Part shown: piece after piece, positions 23,909 through 30,670 of the stretch
Numbering within the stretch: position 1 is the first letter of the stretch
Layout: every line of letters begins with the position of its first letter
From: Alphaproteobacteria bacterium
Lineage (GTDB): Bacteria; Pseudomonadota; Alphaproteobacteria; MPNO01
Direction: 5' to 3'
Assembly (NCBI GenBank): GCA_965248835.1
Contig: CBDFLJ010000001.1
Coordinates: forward strand, 704,001 to 768,000
Length of the DNA stretch: 64,000 bases
The notes under the pieces: generated by a model
What the model was told of the DNA's origin: nothing
Databases searched by the model: none
Seen by the model: only the letters and a program-made list of their open reading frames with translations
Made by a program: the position numbers and the translations under genes

Positions 23909-24844
23909 ATGGCGATCGGTGGGATCGGTCCGGTCTGTGTGCGCGCGATGCTGGTCGTTGTGCTGTGCGCGCCGTTGTTCGCGGGTTGCGGCGAAAGTCC
24001 GAGCGAGATCCTCGCCCGCGAAAAGCTGCGCGTGGGCGCAAAGATCACCGGGCTGGGCGGGATGATCGACGCCGGCAGGCTGCCCAACACCCGGATCATC
24101 AAGACATATGCCGGCGTGATCGGCGCCGAACGGCCGCAGCTTGCCAAGCTGGTGGGCGAGCTGCGCAAGGAGGCGACGACCCAGGGCCTCAACTTCACCA
24201 ACCTCGGCACCAGGCTCAAGGCGGTCAAAGCCACGCCGCGCGGCAAGCAGGAGACCGACCGGGCGCTCGATGCGATCGTCCGCATCGAAGCCGCCGCCGA
24301 TCCGGTGGTGTTCAACGACTCCCTGGTCGATGTGCTCAACGTGCTGGCCGATCTGTCCGGCGGCAAGCTCGCCCGTATGGAGGGGGCCGCGCGCGAGAGG
24401 CCGGCCGCTCAAGGGGCCGGCAGCCATCTGGTAGGCAACCCGACCTATGGACGTTGGCAGCGCGACAACACCGGGCGCAGCTTCTGGGAATGGTACGGCG
24501 CCTACGCGCTGTTTCGCGATGTTTTCTGGCGGCCGGGGCGGTACCACTACAACGACTGGTACCCGCGCCGCGGCTGGAGCTATTACGGCGATGTCGGCCG
24601 CAACTATTACGGCACCCGGACCGACCAGCGCCGTTGGGGCGAGGCGACGCGGCGCCACCCCAACGTGCCGCGCAAGACCTACCGCAACCTGCGCAGCGAG
24701 CGGCGGCTTTCGACCTACGGCCGCTCCGATACCCGCACCGCCGCGAAGACCACGCGCCGCGCCTCGTCCTATTCGGGCTATGGCTCGTCGGTGCGCGGCA
24801 CCAGCTCCGGCGGGTCGCGCTTCGGCGGGCGGCGCGGCAAATGA
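23909..24844 (+). CDS. Putative lipoprotein with aromatic-rich and G/S/R-rich tail (DUF350/polyamine operon partner)
   Basis: Hydrophobic stretch with lipobox FAG-C; LVGNPTYGRW...SFWEWYG; low-complexity tail SSGGSRFGGRRGK. Start may be ATG 23948. Confidence 0.75.
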   Translation: MAIGGIGPVCVRAMLVVVLCAPLFAGCGESPSEILAREKLRVGAKITGLGGMIDAGRLPNTRIIKTYAGVIGAERPQLAKLVGELRKEATTQGLNFTNLGTRLKAVKATPRGKQETDRALDAIVRIEAAADPVVFNDSLVDVLNVLADLSGGKLARMEGAARERPAAQGAGSHLVGNPTYGRWQRDNTGRSFWEWYGAYALFRDVFWRPGRYHYNDWYPRRGWSYYGDVGRNYYGTRTDQRRWGEATRRHPNVPRKTYRNLRSERRLSTYGRSDTRTAAKTTRRASSYSGYGSSVRGTSSGGSRFGGRRGK

Positions 24845-24867
24845 TCCGATGAGGGGAGCGTCCTGAC

Positions 24868-25761
24868 ATGGTGAGCGCCGATTTCTCCGGGCCGACGCTG
24901 GTCATGCTGGCCTTGGGGGTGGTGATCGTCTTCGCGGTCCTGTTCAGCGTGCGGCTGCTCTATGGCGCGGCCGCCGGGCTCGATACCACCAGCGAGCTTG
25001 CCGGCAAGGACAATTTCGCCTTTGGCATCGGCCTTGCCGGGATGACGCTGGGCGTGGCGATCATGCTGACCGGGGTTGCCGAGGGCGGATATGCCGCCAG
25101 CATCGGCGAGGAAGTCTCGGCCCTGGTCATCTACGCCGCACTCGGGCTGGTGTTGATGTGGCTGACCCGGTTGATCTTCGACCGCGTGTCGATTCCCGCG
25201 TTCTCGGTCAAGGCCGAGATCCAGAACGGCAACGTCCCGATCGCGATCGTCGAAGCGGGCAACGTGCTGGCAACCGCGGTGATGGTCAGTGCCGTCATGC
25301 GGTGGTCCGAAGGATCGCTCGCCGCGGCCCTGACCGCGGTCTTGGCGGGCTATGTGGTCACCCAGGTGATCCTCACCGCCACCACCTATTACCGGGTCTG
25401 GCTGTTCGGGTTGCGCAACGCCGGCAAGCGGTTCCAGAACGTCGTCCAGGAGGGCAATACCGCACTGGCGCTCCGGTTCGCCGGCTTCCAGATGGGGGTG
25501 GCGCTGGCGGTGACCGCCGCGGCCCAGGTCGTCGTCTATGACCCGGCCGGCGATCCGATCGTCCAGGCGCTGATCTGGGGGGCGTGCTCTTTGGTCCTGG
25601 CTGCGGTCCTGATCGTGCTCAGCCTGCTCGCAGAGCGCTTCGTGCTGCGCAGCATCGACGTGTCCGAAGAGGTCGACCGCCAGAGCAATATCGGCGTCGC
25701 GCTGACCGAGGTCGCGGTCTATGCCGGGATCGGGCTGGTGTTCAACGGGCTGCTGGCCTGA
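24868..25761 (+). CDS. DUF350 (UPF0719) multi-pass membrane protein
   Basis: Four repeats of hairpin-TM units with N-x-x-x-[GA] motifs (KDNFAFG, NGNVPIA, EGNTALA, QSNIGVA). Confidence 0.8.
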   Translation: MVSADFSGPTLVMLALGVVIVFAVLFSVRLLYGAAAGLDTTSELAGKDNFAFGIGLAGMTLGVAIMLTGVAEGGYAASIGEEVSALVIYAALGLVLMWLTRLIFDRVSIPAFSVKAEIQNGNVPIAIVEAGNVLATAVMVSAVMRWSEGSLAAALTAVLAGYVVTQVILTATTYYRVWLFGLRNAGKRFQNVVQEGNTALALRFAGFQMGVALAVTAAAQVVVYDPAGDPIVQALIWGACSLVLAAVLIVLSLLAERFVLRSIDVSEEVDRQSNIGVALTEVAVYAGIGLVFNGLLA

Positions 25762-25784
25762 GCGCGCGCACCACCCGGGCGGCC

Positions 25785-27491
25785 GTGCGCAGCGCGGTCT
25801 TCGACGACATCGCGGTGATCGTGATGACCGGCGTTCTCGCCGGCTGCGGCCTGATCTACGAATACCTCCTGGCCAGCACCGCCGGGCGCATGCTGGGGGC
25901 GGTCGAAACGGTAATCTTCGCGATGATCGGGGTGATGATCGTCGCGATGGGGATCGGTGCGTTCCTGGCGCGGTTCGTGCCCGCGCCGTTCACCGGCTTC
26001 GCCTGGCTGGAGGCGATCATCGCGGTCTTCGGCGGCGCCTCGGTCCTGCTGCTGGGCGCGGTCACCGCCGCGGTCATCCTGCTGCCGCAGGCAATCGCGG
26101 CGACCTACGGCATGCCGCCCGACCTGGTCCCGCGCGGGTCCCTGGTCACGGTGCTGGATGCGGCAGCCGATATCGCGCCCTACGTCCTCGGAGCGCTGCT
26201 CGGCATCATGGTCGGCATGGAGATCCCGCTGCTCGCGCGGATCCGCCAGAGCTTCCACGCCGATGCGCTGATCCACAACACCGGCACGATCTACGGCGCG
26301 GATTATATCGGCGCCGGGATCGGGGCGGCGCTTTGGGTGGCGGTGATGCTGTCGATGGAGCCGGTGCGCGCGGCCTACCTCACCGCCGGCGTCAACCTCG
26401 TCGTCGGCGTCGGCTTTCTCGTCATCTACCGGCGGCGGGTCCGCCGGTTCGCGCTGGTGCTGCTGCTCCATGCGCTGGCCGGGGTGGGGCTGCTGGCGGT
26501 CGCCCAGGGCGGCACCGACTGGGCGCGGGCGATGGAGGACCTGCTCTACCGGGACACGGTGGTCTATTCCACCAACACCGGGCACCAGCGGATCGCGCTC
26601 ACCCGACGGGTGGTCCATGCCGGTACGCCGCCGGTCTGGAGCCTCTACCTCAACGGCCGGTTGCAGTTCGACTCCTCGGACGAGCACGTCTACCACGCCA
26701 TGCTGACCTATCCGGCGCTCGCCGCGGCGGCCCGGCGGCAGCGCATCCTGGTGATCGGCGGCGGCGACGGGCTTGCGGTGCGCGACATCCTGCGCTGGAA
26801 CCCGCGCGCGGTCGTCGTCCTCGACCTCGATCCCGACCTGGTCGACCTGTTCACCCGCCCGCGCTTCGTCGAAGGCGTATTCGTCAACCGCGCGCTGCTT
26901 GCGCTCAACGGCTTCGCCTTCCGCGATCCACGGGTCAGCGTCCGCTTCGGCGATGCCTTCATCGGCGTCGACGCCCTGCTGCGCGACGGCGAGAAATTCG
27001 ATTCGGTGATCGTCGATCTTCCCGATCCCAGCCACCCCGACCTCGCCCGGCTCTACAGCGTGCGCTTTTATCGGAAGCTCGGCCTGCTGCTGGCCGCCGA
27101 CGGGACGATGGCAATCCAGTCGACCTCGCCCTACTTCGCGCGCGCGGCCTTCCTCAGCATCGGCCGGACGGTCGAGGAAGCCGGCTTCGGCCAGGTCGAC
27201 CAGTATGGCCACAATGTCCCCAGCCTCGGCCAGTGGGGCTGGACGGTGGCAACCCGCCGGGGTCCGTCGGCGCGCGAACGGCTGCGCCGGCTCGATTCTC
27301 TTCCGGTCGATGACGGTTTCACCACCCGCGCGCTGCTGCTCGGGGCGTTCGCGTTTCCCAAGGGCTTTTTCGACGGAAGGGCGGACATCGCGCCGAGCCG
27401 GCTGGCCGATGCCGCGGTCTACCGCTATTACCGGCAAGGCTGGGAGCAGGCGACGGGCCTTTCCGCCGCGCCCGGCAAACAGAGGCCTTGA
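25785..27491 (+). CDS. speE: Membrane-bound polyamine aminopropyltransferase (spermidine synthase-like)
   Basis: N-terminal TM domain (CGLIYE, GMEIPL, DYIGA); C-terminal LNGRLQF, YH, IGGGDG, VDLPDP, QSTSP. Start codon uncertain. Confidence 0.85.
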   Translation: MRSAVFDDIAVIVMTGVLAGCGLIYEYLLASTAGRMLGAVETVIFAMIGVMIVAMGIGAFLARFVPAPFTGFAWLEAIIAVFGGASVLLLGAVTAAVILLPQAIAATYGMPPDLVPRGSLVTVLDAAADIAPYVLGALLGIMVGMEIPLLARIRQSFHADALIHNTGTIYGADYIGAGIGAALWVAVMLSMEPVRAAYLTAGVNLVVGVGFLVIYRRRVRRFALVLLLHALAGVGLLAVAQGGTDWARAMEDLLYRDTVVYSTNTGHQRIALTRRVVHAGTPPVWSLYLNGRLQFDSSDEHVYHAMLTYPALAAAARRQRILVIGGGDGLAVRDILRWNPRAVVVLDLDPDLVDLFTRPRFVEGVFVNRALLALNGFAFRDPRVSVRFGDAFIGVDALLRDGEKFDSVIVDLPDPSHPDLARLYSVRFYRKLGLLLAADGTMAIQSTSPYFARAAFLSIGRTVEEAGFGQVDQYGHNVPSLGQWGWTVATRRGPSARERLRRLDSLPVDDGFTTRALLLGAFAFPKGFFDGRADIAPSRLADAAVYRYYRQGWEQATGLSAAPGKQRP

Positions 27492-27514
27492 AACCGCGCG
27501 CGGACGCCCCATAT
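27487..27514 (+). promoter_or_regulatory. Sigma32 (RpoH)-type promoter
   Basis: CTTGAA (27487-27492) - 14 nt - CCCCATAT (27507-27514), matching the sigma32 consensus CTTGAA-N13-15-CCCCATnT. Confidence 0.7.
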
Positions 27515-27515
27515 T

Positions 27516-27540
27516 GTGACAAGTCACGAGTGACAGTCAC
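27516..27540. promoter_or_regulatory. Tandem palindromic operator candidate
   Basis: GTGAC-AA-GTCAC-GA-GTGAC-A-GTCAC: four alternating half-sites between the -10 element and the RBS. Confidence 0.7.
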
Positions 27541-27555
27541 GAAACGGAGGCTCTT

Positions 27556-28173
27556 TTGGCCGATGGACCGGCACGAAAGCCGCTCAGCCCCGCCGCCCGC
27601 AAACGCCGCCAGCGTGAGCGTCTGCAGGCCGCCGGGCTCGCCGCGGTCGAGGTCTGGGTGCCGCCGGAGCATCGCGGCGTCGTGCGCCGTTTCGAACGGT
27701 TGCTGCGGCTGGGCATCGTCCCGCCGATGCCGACCGTCCGCGACATTGACCCCAAAGGAGACCGGACCATGGATCTGAACCTGCTGCGTGAAACGCTGGA
27801 CGAGTACACATCGGAGAACGGTTACACGTTCCAGACCAGCACGCCGGATGGCGAGGCCGGCCTGGAGGTCATCGTCGAGGATCGCGACGAATTCCCGATC
27901 CTGCTGTCGGCCGATGAAGAGCAGACGCTGTGCCTGACCTATCTGTGGGACGAGGCCCAGGTGAAGCCCGAAAAGCGCACCGAACTCTTGACCACCTTGC
28001 TGGAGATGAACGTGCCGCTGCCGCTGTCGTCCTTCGGCAAGGTCGCCGACCGCTACGTGATCTTCGGTGCGCTGGCCGCGACCGCTTCGACCGAGGACCT
28101 GGTGACCGAGATCGAGACCCTGAGCGACAACACCCTCGAGGCGCTCGAGGTCGTCGCCCCTTACCTGAACTAG
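27556..28173 (+). CDS. yjfI: YjfI (DUF2170, CesT/T3SS-chaperone-like) protein with N-terminal basic putative DNA-binding module; second in-frame start at 27769
   Basis: LLEMNVPLPLSSFG...YVIFGAL...IETLSDN motif. TTG 27556 has GGAGG upstream; ATG 27769 has AAGGAG upstream. Confidence 0.85.
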   Translation: MADGPARKPLSPAARKRRQRERLQAAGLAAVEVWVPPEHRGVVRRFERLLRLGIVPPMPTVRDIDPKGDRTMDLNLLRETLDEYTSENGYTFQTSTPDGEAGLEVIVEDRDEFPILLSADEEQTLCLTYLWDEAQVKPEKRTELLTTLLEMNVPLPLSSFGKVADRYVIFGALAATASTEDLVTEIETLSDNTLEALEVVAPYLN

Positions 28174-28195
28174 CCCAAAGCGTGGAGGAAGAACG

Positions 28196-28888
28196 ATGGC
28201 GATTTTGGCAAAGCTTTTCACCGCGATGCGCGGTGCGGCGACCGAGACCGGCGAAGCGGTCGTCGACCACCAGGCGCTGCGGATTCTGGATCAGGAAATG
28301 CGCGACGCGGACAAGGAGCTGGGCGAGGCGAAATCCCAGCTCACCGAGGTGATGGCCCAGAAGCGCGGCGTCGAGCGCGAGGTCGAGAAGCTGCGCGGCC
28401 AGATCTCCGAGCACGAGGACTACGCGATGAAGGCGCTGGATAAGGGCGATGAGAGCCTGGCCGGTGACGTCGCCGAGCGCATCGCCCAGTTCGAGGAGGA
28501 GCTCAACCTGCAGGAGCAGGCGCTCGCCCAGTACGATGCCGGGGTCAACCAGCTCAAGCGCAGCATCAAGGCGACCGAGCGCAACATCGCCGCGATGCGC
28601 CGCCAGGTCAGCATGGTCAAGGCGACCGAGCGGGTCCAGAAGGCGAGCGCGGCCGCCGGCGCACGGTTCTCCGGCAGCAACACCGCGATCTCCTCGGCCA
28701 CCGAGTCGCTGGAGCGCATCAAGAAGCGCCAGCAGCACCGCTCCGATCGCATGGAGGCGGCCAGCCAGCTCACCGCCGACACCGAGGGCGCGGACCTCGA
28801 CAAGCGGCTGCGCGATGCCGGGATCGTCAGTGCCGGCAAGTCGGGCGCCGAGGCGCTCGCGCGGATCCGCGCCAAGCGGGGCGGATGA
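28196..28888 (+). CDS. pspA: PspA/IM30 family protein (YjfJ-like)
   Basis: N-terminal amphipathic helix MAILAKLFTAMRG, LDQEMRDA, long coiled coil, LDKRLRDAGI; GGAGG RBS. Confidence 0.9.
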   Translation: MAILAKLFTAMRGAATETGEAVVDHQALRILDQEMRDADKELGEAKSQLTEVMAQKRGVEREVEKLRGQISEHEDYAMKALDKGDESLAGDVAERIAQFEEELNLQEQALAQYDAGVNQLKRSIKATERNIAAMRRQVSMVKATERVQKASAAAGARFSGSNTAISSATESLERIKKRQQHRSDRMEAASQLTADTEGADLDKRLRDAGIVSAGKSGAEALARIRAKRGG

Positions 28889-29514
28889 TGTTCGGCCGGC
28901 TTTTCGGCGGGCGCGGCAAGGACGCGCCCGCGCCCGCCGCAAGCCATGCCTGCGACCTTGGCCCGGGCGGCTTCCTCAAGCTCGGTTTCGTCGCACCGGA
29001 GGGGCTCGCGCAAGCCGACCTCCAGGTCACCGGCGTCCATGCGGTGGACCTGGGCAGCGCGGTCCGCCGGGTGCTTGCGGTCGAAGCGATGACGCTCGGC
29101 CGTCTGGAGATGTGGCGCGGCGAGCGCGGCACCATCGCGCTTGCCAGACCGGTCGCGCGGCCGGATGTCGAGCGGCTGTTCGACCTCGATGCCTTCGCCC
29201 GGTTGTTCGACCCCGACGAGCCGGCGAACCTGGTGCTCGAGCGCATCGCCGAGCCCGCCGGCTTCGAGGGCTGGACCGCGCCGACCTACCGCCAGGAGGC
29301 CGCCCAGGAGGCCTATCTTCACGACGCCGACCCGGCGGCGGCCGCGATCGGCGCAACGCTCGAAGACGATGTCCGCACGTTCGATTTCTACCGGCTGGTC
29401 TCGGATCGGCGCGGCCACGCGCTGGAGGCCTGCGTCCATGACGGCGGGCGGACCGACGTGGCGCTGGTGGCGCTGTTGCCGGAGACGGTGGTCGAGGAGG
29501 TCTGGTCGGGCTAG
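28885..29514 (+). CDS. YjfK/DUF2491-like protein
   Basis: Amphipathic MFGRLFG start; VHAVDLG, FARLFD, GWTAPTYRQ; position directly after pspA as in yjfIJK. Confidence 0.65.
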   Translation: MMFGRLFGGRGKDAPAPAASHACDLGPGGFLKLGFVAPEGLAQADLQVTGVHAVDLGSAVRRVLAVEAMTLGRLEMWRGERGTIALARPVARPDVERLFDLDAFARLFDPDEPANLVLERIAEPAGFEGWTAPTYRQEAAQEAYLHDADPAAAAIGATLEDDVRTFDFYRLVSDRRGHALEACVHDGGRTDVALVALLPETVVEEVWSG

Positions 29515-29548
29515 AGTCCGGTCCCGACAAGCTGAACCGGCCGGCACG

Positions 29549-30670
29549 GTGTTCGGAGTCCTACTCCGCGTCTTCCGCCGCCGATTGGCGGCCTCGCGCG
29601 GCTCGGATCTCGTCCGGGCGCGGCGCAACCTGCGCGCGCTGGGCCTTTACCTGGCTGCGGTCGGCGTCCTTCACGTCGTGGCGATGATGGTCTTCGAGGG
29701 GTTGAGCCTGGGCGAGGCCGCGTGGCTGACCGCGACCACGGCGACGACCGTCGGCTACGGCGATGCGGCCGCGGCCACCGAAGGGGGGCGCTGGTCGACG
29801 GTAATCCTGATCTATCTCGGCGGGATCTTCGCGCTCGGCAAGGGAGCCGGCGACTATTTCGACTACCGGGCGAGCCGGCGGGCGCTCAAGGAGCGCGGCC
29901 AATGGAGGTGGAACTTGCAGGATCATGTCCTGTTCATCAACGCGCCCTCCGCGGGTGCGGAGACCTATTTCGAGACCCTGCTGCGGCAGTTCCGCGCGAC
30001 CGGCTGGGGTGAGGACCGCGCGGTGCTGATTCTCTCCCCGGCCTGGCCGACAGGCCTGCCGGCGAGCCTGAGCGCGCTGGGGGTGGTTCATGTCGACGGC
30101 CGCGCCGAGACCACGGGCAGGCTGGATGCGGCCGATGCCCGCAGCGCCGCCGCGGTGGTGATCCTGGCCGCCGACGAGAAGGACCCGATCTCCGACGGGG
30201 TCGGCTTCGACATCGTCCACCGCCTGGTCGAGATGGGCGTGCGGGGCCCGATCATCGCCGAATGCGTCGACGATTTGAACCGCGAGCGGTTGCGCAGCGC
30301 CGGCGCCAACACGGTGACCCGGCCGATGCGCGGCTATCCGGAGATGATGGTCCGTGCGCTGGTCGCGCCGGGCTCGGAAGCGATCATCGAGAACCTGTTC
30401 ACCCGCCATGGCGATGAATGTGTCCGCTACGAGATCCCGGTCGCGGGCGTCACCTGGGGCGGGCTGGCGATTGCGCTGCTGCTCGACGGCGCCGGGACGG
30501 CGATCGGCTATGCCCGCGCAGGCGACGGCGCCATCGTGACCAACCCGCTGCCCGAGGAACAGGTCGACGCCTCGGCGCTTTATGTGATCGTCAAGGAAAA
30601 GCACGAGCGGTCCGTTGAGACCATCGCGCGCCTGGTCGCCGCCGCGGTCTCGGCACGGGCCGCCTCGTGA
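29549..30670 (+). CDS. 2-TM potassium channel with RCK/TrkA-N domain
   Basis: Selectivity filter TATTVGYGD flanked by two TM helices, then a Rossmann-like RCK domain. Confidence 0.9.
   Translation: MFGVLLRVFRRRLAASRGSDLVRARRNLRALGLYLAAVGVLHVVAMMVFEGLSLGEAAWLTATTATTVGYGDAAAATEGGRWSTVILIYLGGIFALGKGAGDYFDYRASRRALKERGQWRWNLQDHVLFINAPSAGAETYFETLLRQFRATGWGEDRAVLILSPAWPTGLPASLSALGVVHVDGRAETTGRLDAADARSAAAVVILAADEKDPISDGVGFDIVHRLVEMGVRGPIIAECVDDLNRERLRSAGANTVTRPMRGYPEMMVRALVAPGSEAIIENLFTRHGDECVRYEIPVAGVTWGGLAIALLLDGAGTAIGYARAGDGAIVTNPLPEEQVDASALYVIVKEKHERSVETIARLVAAAVSARAAS

Follow-up and report, generated by a model that had tools for sequence, protein, structure and literature searches.

yjfI ahead of pspA: a candidate dual-start gene for an autorepressor and a chaperone in an alphaproteobacterial genome

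How is pspA controlled in a genome whose best match to the regulator PspF reaches 199 bits against a cut-off of 443.55? In this work, we focused on the yjfI-pspA locus of a 4.9-Mb alphaproteobacterial genome, whose closest named relatives are uncultured Alphaproteobacteria and Rhodospirillales bins. The window, i.e. the whole stretch of DNA analysed, spans 64,000 nucleotides (nt; positions 704,001 to 768,000 of contig CBDFLJ010000001.1, assembly GCA_965248835.1). An original prediction, made from the sequence alone, had read the region ahead of pspA as a PspF-independent switch combining a sigma32 promoter, a tandem palindromic operator and a yjfI gene with two starts and an optional DNA-binding module. 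All the elements that it had named (CTTGAA, CCCCATAT, the palindromes, TTG 27556 with GGAGG and ATG 27769 with AAAGGAG) were found in their places, and the PspF score agrees with the independence from PspF that it had assumed. We propose, at a probability of roughly 0.72, that yjfI uses two starts in one reading frame to make both an autorepressor and a chaperone, a reading whose DNA binding and isoform ratio we infer. The yjfI/DUF2170 loci gathered for comparison carry labels beginning with L, the window locus being the reference. The features concerned are the following.

27487 to 27492, plus strand: -35 element CTTGAA, overlapping the TGA stop of a spermidine-synthase-like gene (from sequence; CTTGA is kept in 20/20 close loci)
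27507 to 27514, plus strand: -10 element CCCCATAT, 14 nt past CTTGAA (from sequence and the RpoH consensus of PMC4167512)
27516 to 27540, no strand: candidate operator of four GT(G/C)AC half-sites with a period of about 7 base pairs, over the presumed transcription start (from the tandem site and co-occurrence; binding putative)
27546 to 27558, plus strand: Shine-Dalgarno GGAGG (27546-27550) and TTG start (27556) of the long isoform (duplex -9.5 kcal/mol)
27556 to 28173, plus strand: yjfI long isoform, 205 residues, comprising N-terminal module, linker and DUF2170 chaperone-fold domain (NF050185 alignment, many full-length homologues, protein model)
27577 to 27729, plus strand: N-terminal module, residues 8-58, with a basic helix (12-25), an extended strand (28-36) and a helix (37-51) (from the model and partial PF11455 matches)
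27754 to 27771, plus strand: internal Shine-Dalgarno AAAGGAG (27754-27760) and ATG 27769 (Met72), start of the short isoform (duplex -8.9 kcal/mol)
27769 to 28173, plus strand: short isoform, 134 residues, a DUF2170/YjfI domain of CesT-like chaperone fold (PF09938 and 8Q8O matches)

The candidate operator and its distribution

The candidate operator consists of two palindromes, GTGAC-AA-GTCAC (27516-27527) and GTGAC-A-GTCAC (27530-27540). One copy on its own is unremarkable; single GTGAC-N1-GTCAC and GTGAC-N2-GTCAC occur nine and five times in the genome, against about 2.5 expected for each. As a pair they stand apart: among the 99 genomic sites of the generalised form TNAC-NN-GTNA, the two in the window are the sole pair within 30 nt. 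A wider regulon was considered and rejected, as the tandem site and the module each occur just once in the genome and the gene at 23909 has no such site ahead of it.

After removal of 11 duplicates and two loci lacking an upstream flank, 141 loci were classified as extended (i.e. N-terminal module in frame with DUF2170; 59 loci) or short (82 loci), and motifs were sought in the 200 nt upstream. Co-occurrence of the palindromes with N-extended homologues, a check set beforehand, was borne out: the strict form GTGAC-N1/2-GTCAC lies upstream of 19/59 extended and 0/82 short genes, and the generalised form, which also takes in the TCACATGTAA-type sites of Pseudomonas-type loci and the GTTACGCGTAAC-type sites of Caulobacter-type loci, upstream of 47/59 and 4/82, respectively. 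For the first 37 extended loci, the background rate was 7 hits in 1120 other windows, and 3.5 % in shuffled sequences. Among loci fetched once the motif had been fixed, it was present in 17 of the 22 extended and none of the three short ones; the latter share their family (Caulobacteraceae) with extended Caulobacter-type loci, the motif having been lost along with the module. In each lineage, the sites sit on the core promoter or start site. We regard the conserved control element as real.

Many short loci have another palindrome, GACAT-N3-ATGTC, upstream of 57/82 short and 0/59 extended genes. In L031-L081 and L099-L123 it is usually present in two copies, over the -35 element and the start site, together with a separate operon gene of 100-120 residues. 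Of the short loci, 52 extend 3 kb or more downstream; scored with a relaxed pattern, 42 of these have both site and gene, six neither, three the site only and one the gene only. Since TNAC-NN-GTNA goes with the fused module and GACAT-N3-ATGTC with the separate small gene, the two kinds of regulator each come with a site of their own. The module and the free-standing regulator showed no homology by hhalign (probability 0.1 %), and a profile built from 12 of the separate genes found no match in the host genome. The small regulator has no useful Pfam match, its ribbon-helix-helix (RHH) label resting on PMC11237479 and inspection. The tree places the clade of the window among short forms (local support 0.9).

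The layout of promoter and palindromes is present in all 20 close-clade loci. In two of them (L020 and L021) it lies some 330 nt further upstream, where an insertion of about that length, roughly 200-530 nt upstream of the chaperone domain, parts promoter and operator from the gene; it splits the first long-form codons (METTAKSDR from KPMSVAERK) and leaves the short start untouched. The insertion has no Pfam match and presumably resembles the end of an IS630-type transposase. In three other loci (L025, L026 and L029), three or four palindromes precede the gene and an additional one follows at about +1455 from the chaperone domain, between genes labelled by eye as NfeD-like and band-7-like.

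The N-terminal module and the two start codons

Most of the closest homologues retain the extension, as do proteins that are 22-30 % identical. Its third-position GC content (0.82) is coding-like, and among 61 aligned sequences R20 and G27 are invariant and W34 nearly so. The original prediction had likened it to DUF3018 modules. That resemblance is real, as 31 of the 61 aligned members match PF11455 (DUF3018) with an E-value of 0.05 or below, 6.9e-7 being the best, but weak, the 71-residue extension of the window itself scoring 20.4 bits against a cut-off of 22.

A protein model built on the 61-row alignment (predicted local distance difference test, pLDDT, 91.8) gave a helix at 12-25, an extended segment and a helix at 37-51. 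Residues 8-58 were further predicted to form a homodimer, with a score of 0.75 against 0.00 for the best of three controls, a pLDDT of 90 and no less than 98 % of contacts shared between runs; the mark used for this score was reached by 20/30 solved pairs and 1/23 single chains, rates that are only rough for this alignment. In the dimer model, residues 28-36 of the two copies pair in antiparallel fashion, centred on residue 32, into an intermolecular ribbon as in ribbon-type repressors, and W34 touches L23 of the partner copy. The model thus favours a module of the dimeric DNA-binding type, as had been supposed, in which the basic helix, rather than a second helix, may do the DNA reading. ESM Atlas gave a best score of 0.87, to be taken as a lead only, and one MazE-like cluster at 0.83; fold searches were dominated by chaperone-domain matches and scarcely probed the module. 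Free-standing copies were found in none of three candidates, by a weak search. Two proteins (P0246 and P0251) join the module to unrelated tails, and another (P0138) bears a different basic N-terminal extension on DUF2170.

The two in-frame starts foreseen for yjfI are both preceded by a Shine-Dalgarno sequence, TTG 27556 opening 205 residues and ATG 27769 opening 134. The shorter product is a DUF2170/YjfI domain (PF09938, 100.3 bits against a cut-off of 27, residues 73-204) of CesT/Tir-like chaperone fold, as judged by comparison with 8Q8O (Z 17.9, root-mean-square deviation 2.4, 134 residues aligned). Its start is conserved: an in-frame ATG lies in the linker of 59/59 extended loci, accompanied in 55/59 by a Shine-Dalgarno at least as strong as -5 kcal/mol, a strength found in 14 of 176 equal-sized control windows inside the domain. 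In the window this Shine-Dalgarno is made up of the rare codons AAA and GGA, which encode 13 % of Lys and 6 % of Gly, respectively, in the host genome.

The first start appears to be the weaker one. It is TTG in seven and CTG in one of the eight closest loci, and the internal site is the stronger in 29/29 distant loci. In 22/22 Pseudomonas-type loci (L085-L087, L093 and L147-L169), the ATG of the long form follows the end of a TAnnnT hexamer by 6-8 nt, which is the geometry of a leaderless mRNA. Because the two Shine-Dalgarno sequences of the window are similar in strength, the case for a minor long form there comes down to the TTG codon. An ACGGA within 27543-27550, overlapping the first Shine-Dalgarno, resembles a CsrA/RsmA site, and PA3732, the Pseudomonas aeruginosa gene discussed below, is reportedly mentioned in an RsmA target-prediction paper.

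A Caulobacter gene offers a direct comparison. The legend to Fig. 2D of Schrader 2014 (PMC4117421) gives CCNA_02448 as an example of two in-frame isoforms, with an internal start verified by liquid chromatography-mass spectrometry; the same source lists it as the first gene before pspA, 672 nt and 223 residues long, and leaderless. As L143 has this 672-nt length and the same 23-nt gap and carries the module, CCNA_02448 is likely orthologous to yjfI of the window; by analogy with L143, its internal start would be Met72. Both genes precede pspA with two in-frame starts; CCNA_02448 differs in being annotated as a conserved hypothetical protein, in its leaderless long start and in not depending on RpoH.

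The second comparison is with BacA of P. aeruginosa (PA3732/PA14_16140), which shares the two-part architecture, the position as first gene before a PspA homologue and the chaperone fold. Residues 11-204 of the window protein align to positions 5-202 of the 206 in the BacA profile NF050185, i.e. over its full-length architecture; yet the window protein scores 76.3 bits against an equivalog cut-off of 300, and its gene lies in a spermidine-synthase cluster. L158, whose long frame counts 206 residues, shows no difference from the 8Q8O chain where the two align, and 8Q8O begins one residue after its internal Met, so that the BacA crystal structure corresponds to the short form. Upstream of L158, two TTACATGTGA sites flank the -35 element of a TTGAAA-17-TAGTGT promoter, and no consensus-like sigma54 site was found nearby with a loose pattern. 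Wallart 2024 (PMC10948618) reported that a bacA transposon mutant accumulates BacB-F 6.1- to 13.5-fold and that BacA negatively controls its own operon, for which protein contacts and a sigma54 site were proposed; the words DNA-binding, palindrome, EMSA (electrophoretic mobility shift assay) and isoform are absent from its main text. PA3732 was treated as a 16-kDa protein by Mace 2008 (PMC2587700), and the text consulted from both papers deals with this form, without N-terminal module, operator or isoforms. Autorepression by a long form would account simply for the phenotype of the bacA mutant.

Taken together, these observations support the dual-start autorepressor reading well, and the following mechanism is proposed. 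Weak initiation at the first start (a TTG in the window; apparently on a leaderless mRNA in Pseudomonas-type loci, and so listed for Caulobacter) would yield a minor long form, whose module would dimerise via its ribbon, bind TNAC-NN-GTNA over the promoter and hold down yjfI-pspA and the genes behind. The conserved internal ATG would supply a short form made of the CesT-like chaperone alone, and the chaperone domain may relay the state of PspA or of the membrane to the operator.

Promoter and rival explanations

The original prediction had further assigned the promoter to sigma32. In the window, CTTGAA-N16-CCATAT agrees with the RpoH consensus cTTGaa-N16-CnATaT. The alphaproteobacterial/rhizobial pattern is given as cTTGaa-N16-CgATaT in PMC4167512, which also states that RpoH and SigA motifs often overlap, and RpoHI promoters are marked by TTG and a C at -37 according to PMC3441632. 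An open reading frame with an RpoH box is present in the host genome, which has similar sequences upstream of lon (CTTGAA-N16-CCATTT) and of a small heat-shock gene (ibpA; CTTGAA-N15-CCCAAAT), two genes identified by protein motifs. A putative CIRCE element, together with a promoter of TTGACA type, is located at G000:C1:1369765, some 0.5 kb ahead of one of the two groEL genes.

That heat or protein-folding stress drives the operon, on top of the autorepressor and chaperone, through a promoter read mainly by sigma32 is a possibility to which we give somewhat less than an even chance. The consensus match, the lon and ibpA counterparts, the RpoH-box frame and a 16-nt spacer in 16/20 close loci speak for it. 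Against it, the -35 element is the sigma70-like CTTGAC in 12 of the 20 close orthologues (CTTGAA in six, CTTGAT in two), CCCCATA is also found upstream of a tRNA-Lys gene of the host genome, and RpoH and SigA motifs overlap. Expression data point the same way: the Caulobacter gene rises by 0.50 log2 on DnaKJ depletion and by 0.55 without rpoH (PMC5760092), PA3732 falls 2-fold under heat shock at 46 C (PMC4957987), and PA3731 is induced by osmotic shock and unaffected from 37 to 50 C (PMC2587700). Up-regulation of PA3728-PA3732 is noted in PMC13637947. Pseudomonas-type loci have promoters of the TTGxxx-17-TAnnnT form. Heat-shock drive is accordingly unsupported as a general feature, the Caulobacter and Pseudomonas orthologues being neither RpoH- nor heat-induced. 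For the window promoter the assignment is a weak one: it fits the RpoH pattern and resembles the lon and ibpA upstream regions, but a -35 element of this type is kept in only six of 20 close orthologues. Judging from sequence, lineages differ in their sigma factor and RpoH use is no family trait; it is plausible only for the window genome and part of its close kin, where RpoD is the alternative.

Several observations weigh against the dual-start autorepressor itself. Its module lacks the second helix of a classic RHH fold, since residues 52-72 form a Pro-rich linker with no helix of at least four residues, its PF11455 score is below the cut-off, and the dimer prediction may owe its success to likeness to solved folds. 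TNAC-NN-GTNA was generalised after inspection of loci up to L126, and 12/59 extended loci lack it in the 200-nt window, two by displacement through an insertion, several with relaxed ACATGT copies and two (L113 and L157) with nothing clear; besides, kin are not independent, and the tree needs only six changes between extended and short. The promoter of a transposon can itself drive transcription of the genes behind it, which gives the bacA mutant a second reading. Internal Shine-Dalgarno sites can pause ribosomes, and CCNA_02448 is not in the table of alternative starts of PMC4117421. These last two points would suit an account in which the long fusion is the sole working product, with the internal ATG and its Shine-Dalgarno left over from the regulator-yjfI fusion or serving as an inter-domain pause site, and in which it is no surprise that short-only yjfI genes begin at the same place. 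We hold this to be improbable, as the ATG itself, beyond the purine tract, survives in every extended locus even where identity drops to about 22-30 %, all distant loci have their stronger site at the internal position, and the legend in PMC4117421 reports its verification.

About equally improbable is that some other trans-acting factor recognises the palindromes or that they work as a hairpin in the leader RNA, the module having some other job such as PspA binding. The leader can indeed form a hairpin, and operator binding by the module is something that we infer; yet the hairpin role was rejected because shuffled sequences fold as well as the leader does (z -0.31), and Pseudomonas-type sites upstream of the -10 element would not be transcribed. 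Tandem site and module are, moreover, each unique in the genome, and within Caulobacteraceae the motif is gone where the module is gone (0/3 short). The position of some Pseudomonas-type sites just upstream of -35 could instead indicate that the long form activates, and the annotation of the short form only in many databases that it alone is made, the extension being a chance open frame. Both versions are very unlikely: further sites fall within the spacer or on the start site, operon products are in excess in the bacA mutant, and the extension has invariant residues across families and a coding-like third-position GC content.

Gene neighbourhood, related systems and significance

The genes around yjfI, all on the plus strand, are the following.

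24868 to 25761, plus strand: DUF350 (YjfL-family) membrane protein, same gene cluster (PF03994, E 2.1e-32)
25785 to 27491, plus strand: membrane-fused spermidine-synthase-like gene, 5' of the promoter, start approximate (PF01564, E 2.2e-25)
28196 to 28888, plus strand: pspA/IM30, YjfJ-type (PF04012, E 1.8e-42)
28885 to 29514, plus strand: conserved gene after pspA, homologous to the post-pspA gene of spermidine-synthase-type operons
29603 to 30670, plus strand: potassium-channel-like gene, start not fixed (PF07885, E 3e-9; homologues in L068 and L051)

pspA starts 22 nt past the yjfI stop codon TAG (28171-28173) and is the single PspA match in the whole genome. The genes at 23909 and 28885, compared with the lipoprotein and the DUF4178 beta-rich protein of the second-group operons described below, have no Pfam match; the latter matches nine post-pspA genes of spermidine-synthase-type operons (phmmer E 2e-26 to 5e-9). 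Gene order over 23909-30670 is permuted with respect to some relatives, the DUF350 and spermidine-synthase-like genes lying 5' of the promoter. Between the 28885 gene and the channel gene, L051 and L068 have a small regulator gene and the window none.

The operon class is already known. Ravi 2024 (PMC11237479) describes a CesT/Tir-PspA 'second group' operon with an occasional separate terminal RHH gene. The window shares with it the YjfI-PspA pair, the membrane-fused spermidine synthase and DUF350, and differs in having no separate RHH gene, a module fused to YjfI with another palindrome, and a promoter inside the cluster. Its control mechanism is apparently undescribed; a literature search, in which subscription journals and preprint supplements were thinly covered, found no paper on the module, this operator or the isoform link, and Popp 2022 (PMC9239133) contains none of the terms sought in it.

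Other families are alike in part. With MazE-like antitoxins of PF11455, the module shares a basic helix followed by a GLxxVxVWVP strand and the predicted ribbon dimer, and the N-termini of MazE dimerise and bind operators (PMC8145246); unlike them, the window has no toxin neighbour and a score below the family cut-off, and a chaperone domain replaces the toxin-binding tail. RHH repressors have the intermolecular antiparallel ribbon (28-36) followed by a helix (37-51) that is modelled here, but the basic helix of the module stands ahead of the strand and no second helix follows the first. As in the classical PspF/sigma54 circuit, a PspA effector is governed by a co-located regulator, but with no PspF above cut-off, a sigma70-family promoter and, presumably, repression in place of activation. 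The long form can thus be likened to an antitoxin repressor of the ribbon type joined to a CesT-like chaperone, while falling outside the classic RHH, MazE and BacA-equivalog families.

An equivalent arrangement in Escherichia coli was rejected, since yjfI of MG1655 is preceded by stops and lacks both extension and palindrome. Rychel 2025 (PMC12492005) links yjfIJKL of this species to heat tolerance and reports an activating 1-nt deletion 80 bp upstream; because MG1655 yjfI has no extension, this deletion is not a long-form frameshift.

More speculatively, and less likely than not, the long form would sense the state of PspA (bacterial ESCRT-III), with its dimer on the operator and its CesT-like domain on PspA. 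The commoner short form would compete for PspA or pair with the long form and weaken its DNA binding, the ratio of start-codon use would set the threshold, and lineages would have swapped the fused module and the free-standing regulator several times.

PspA operons that lack PspF, including the bac operon of Pseudomonas, have no established regulator, and a dual-start autorepressor would, if true, explain their control. Negative control by BacA has been studied, and the protein crystallised, on the short form, i.e. without the candidate DNA-binding module, and start sites are likely to be mis-annotated across the family. The present analysis names a candidate DNA-binding domain, its candidate operator in several lineages and a second start codon, and ties a two-isoform Caulobacter gene, so far unexplained, to a candidate function.

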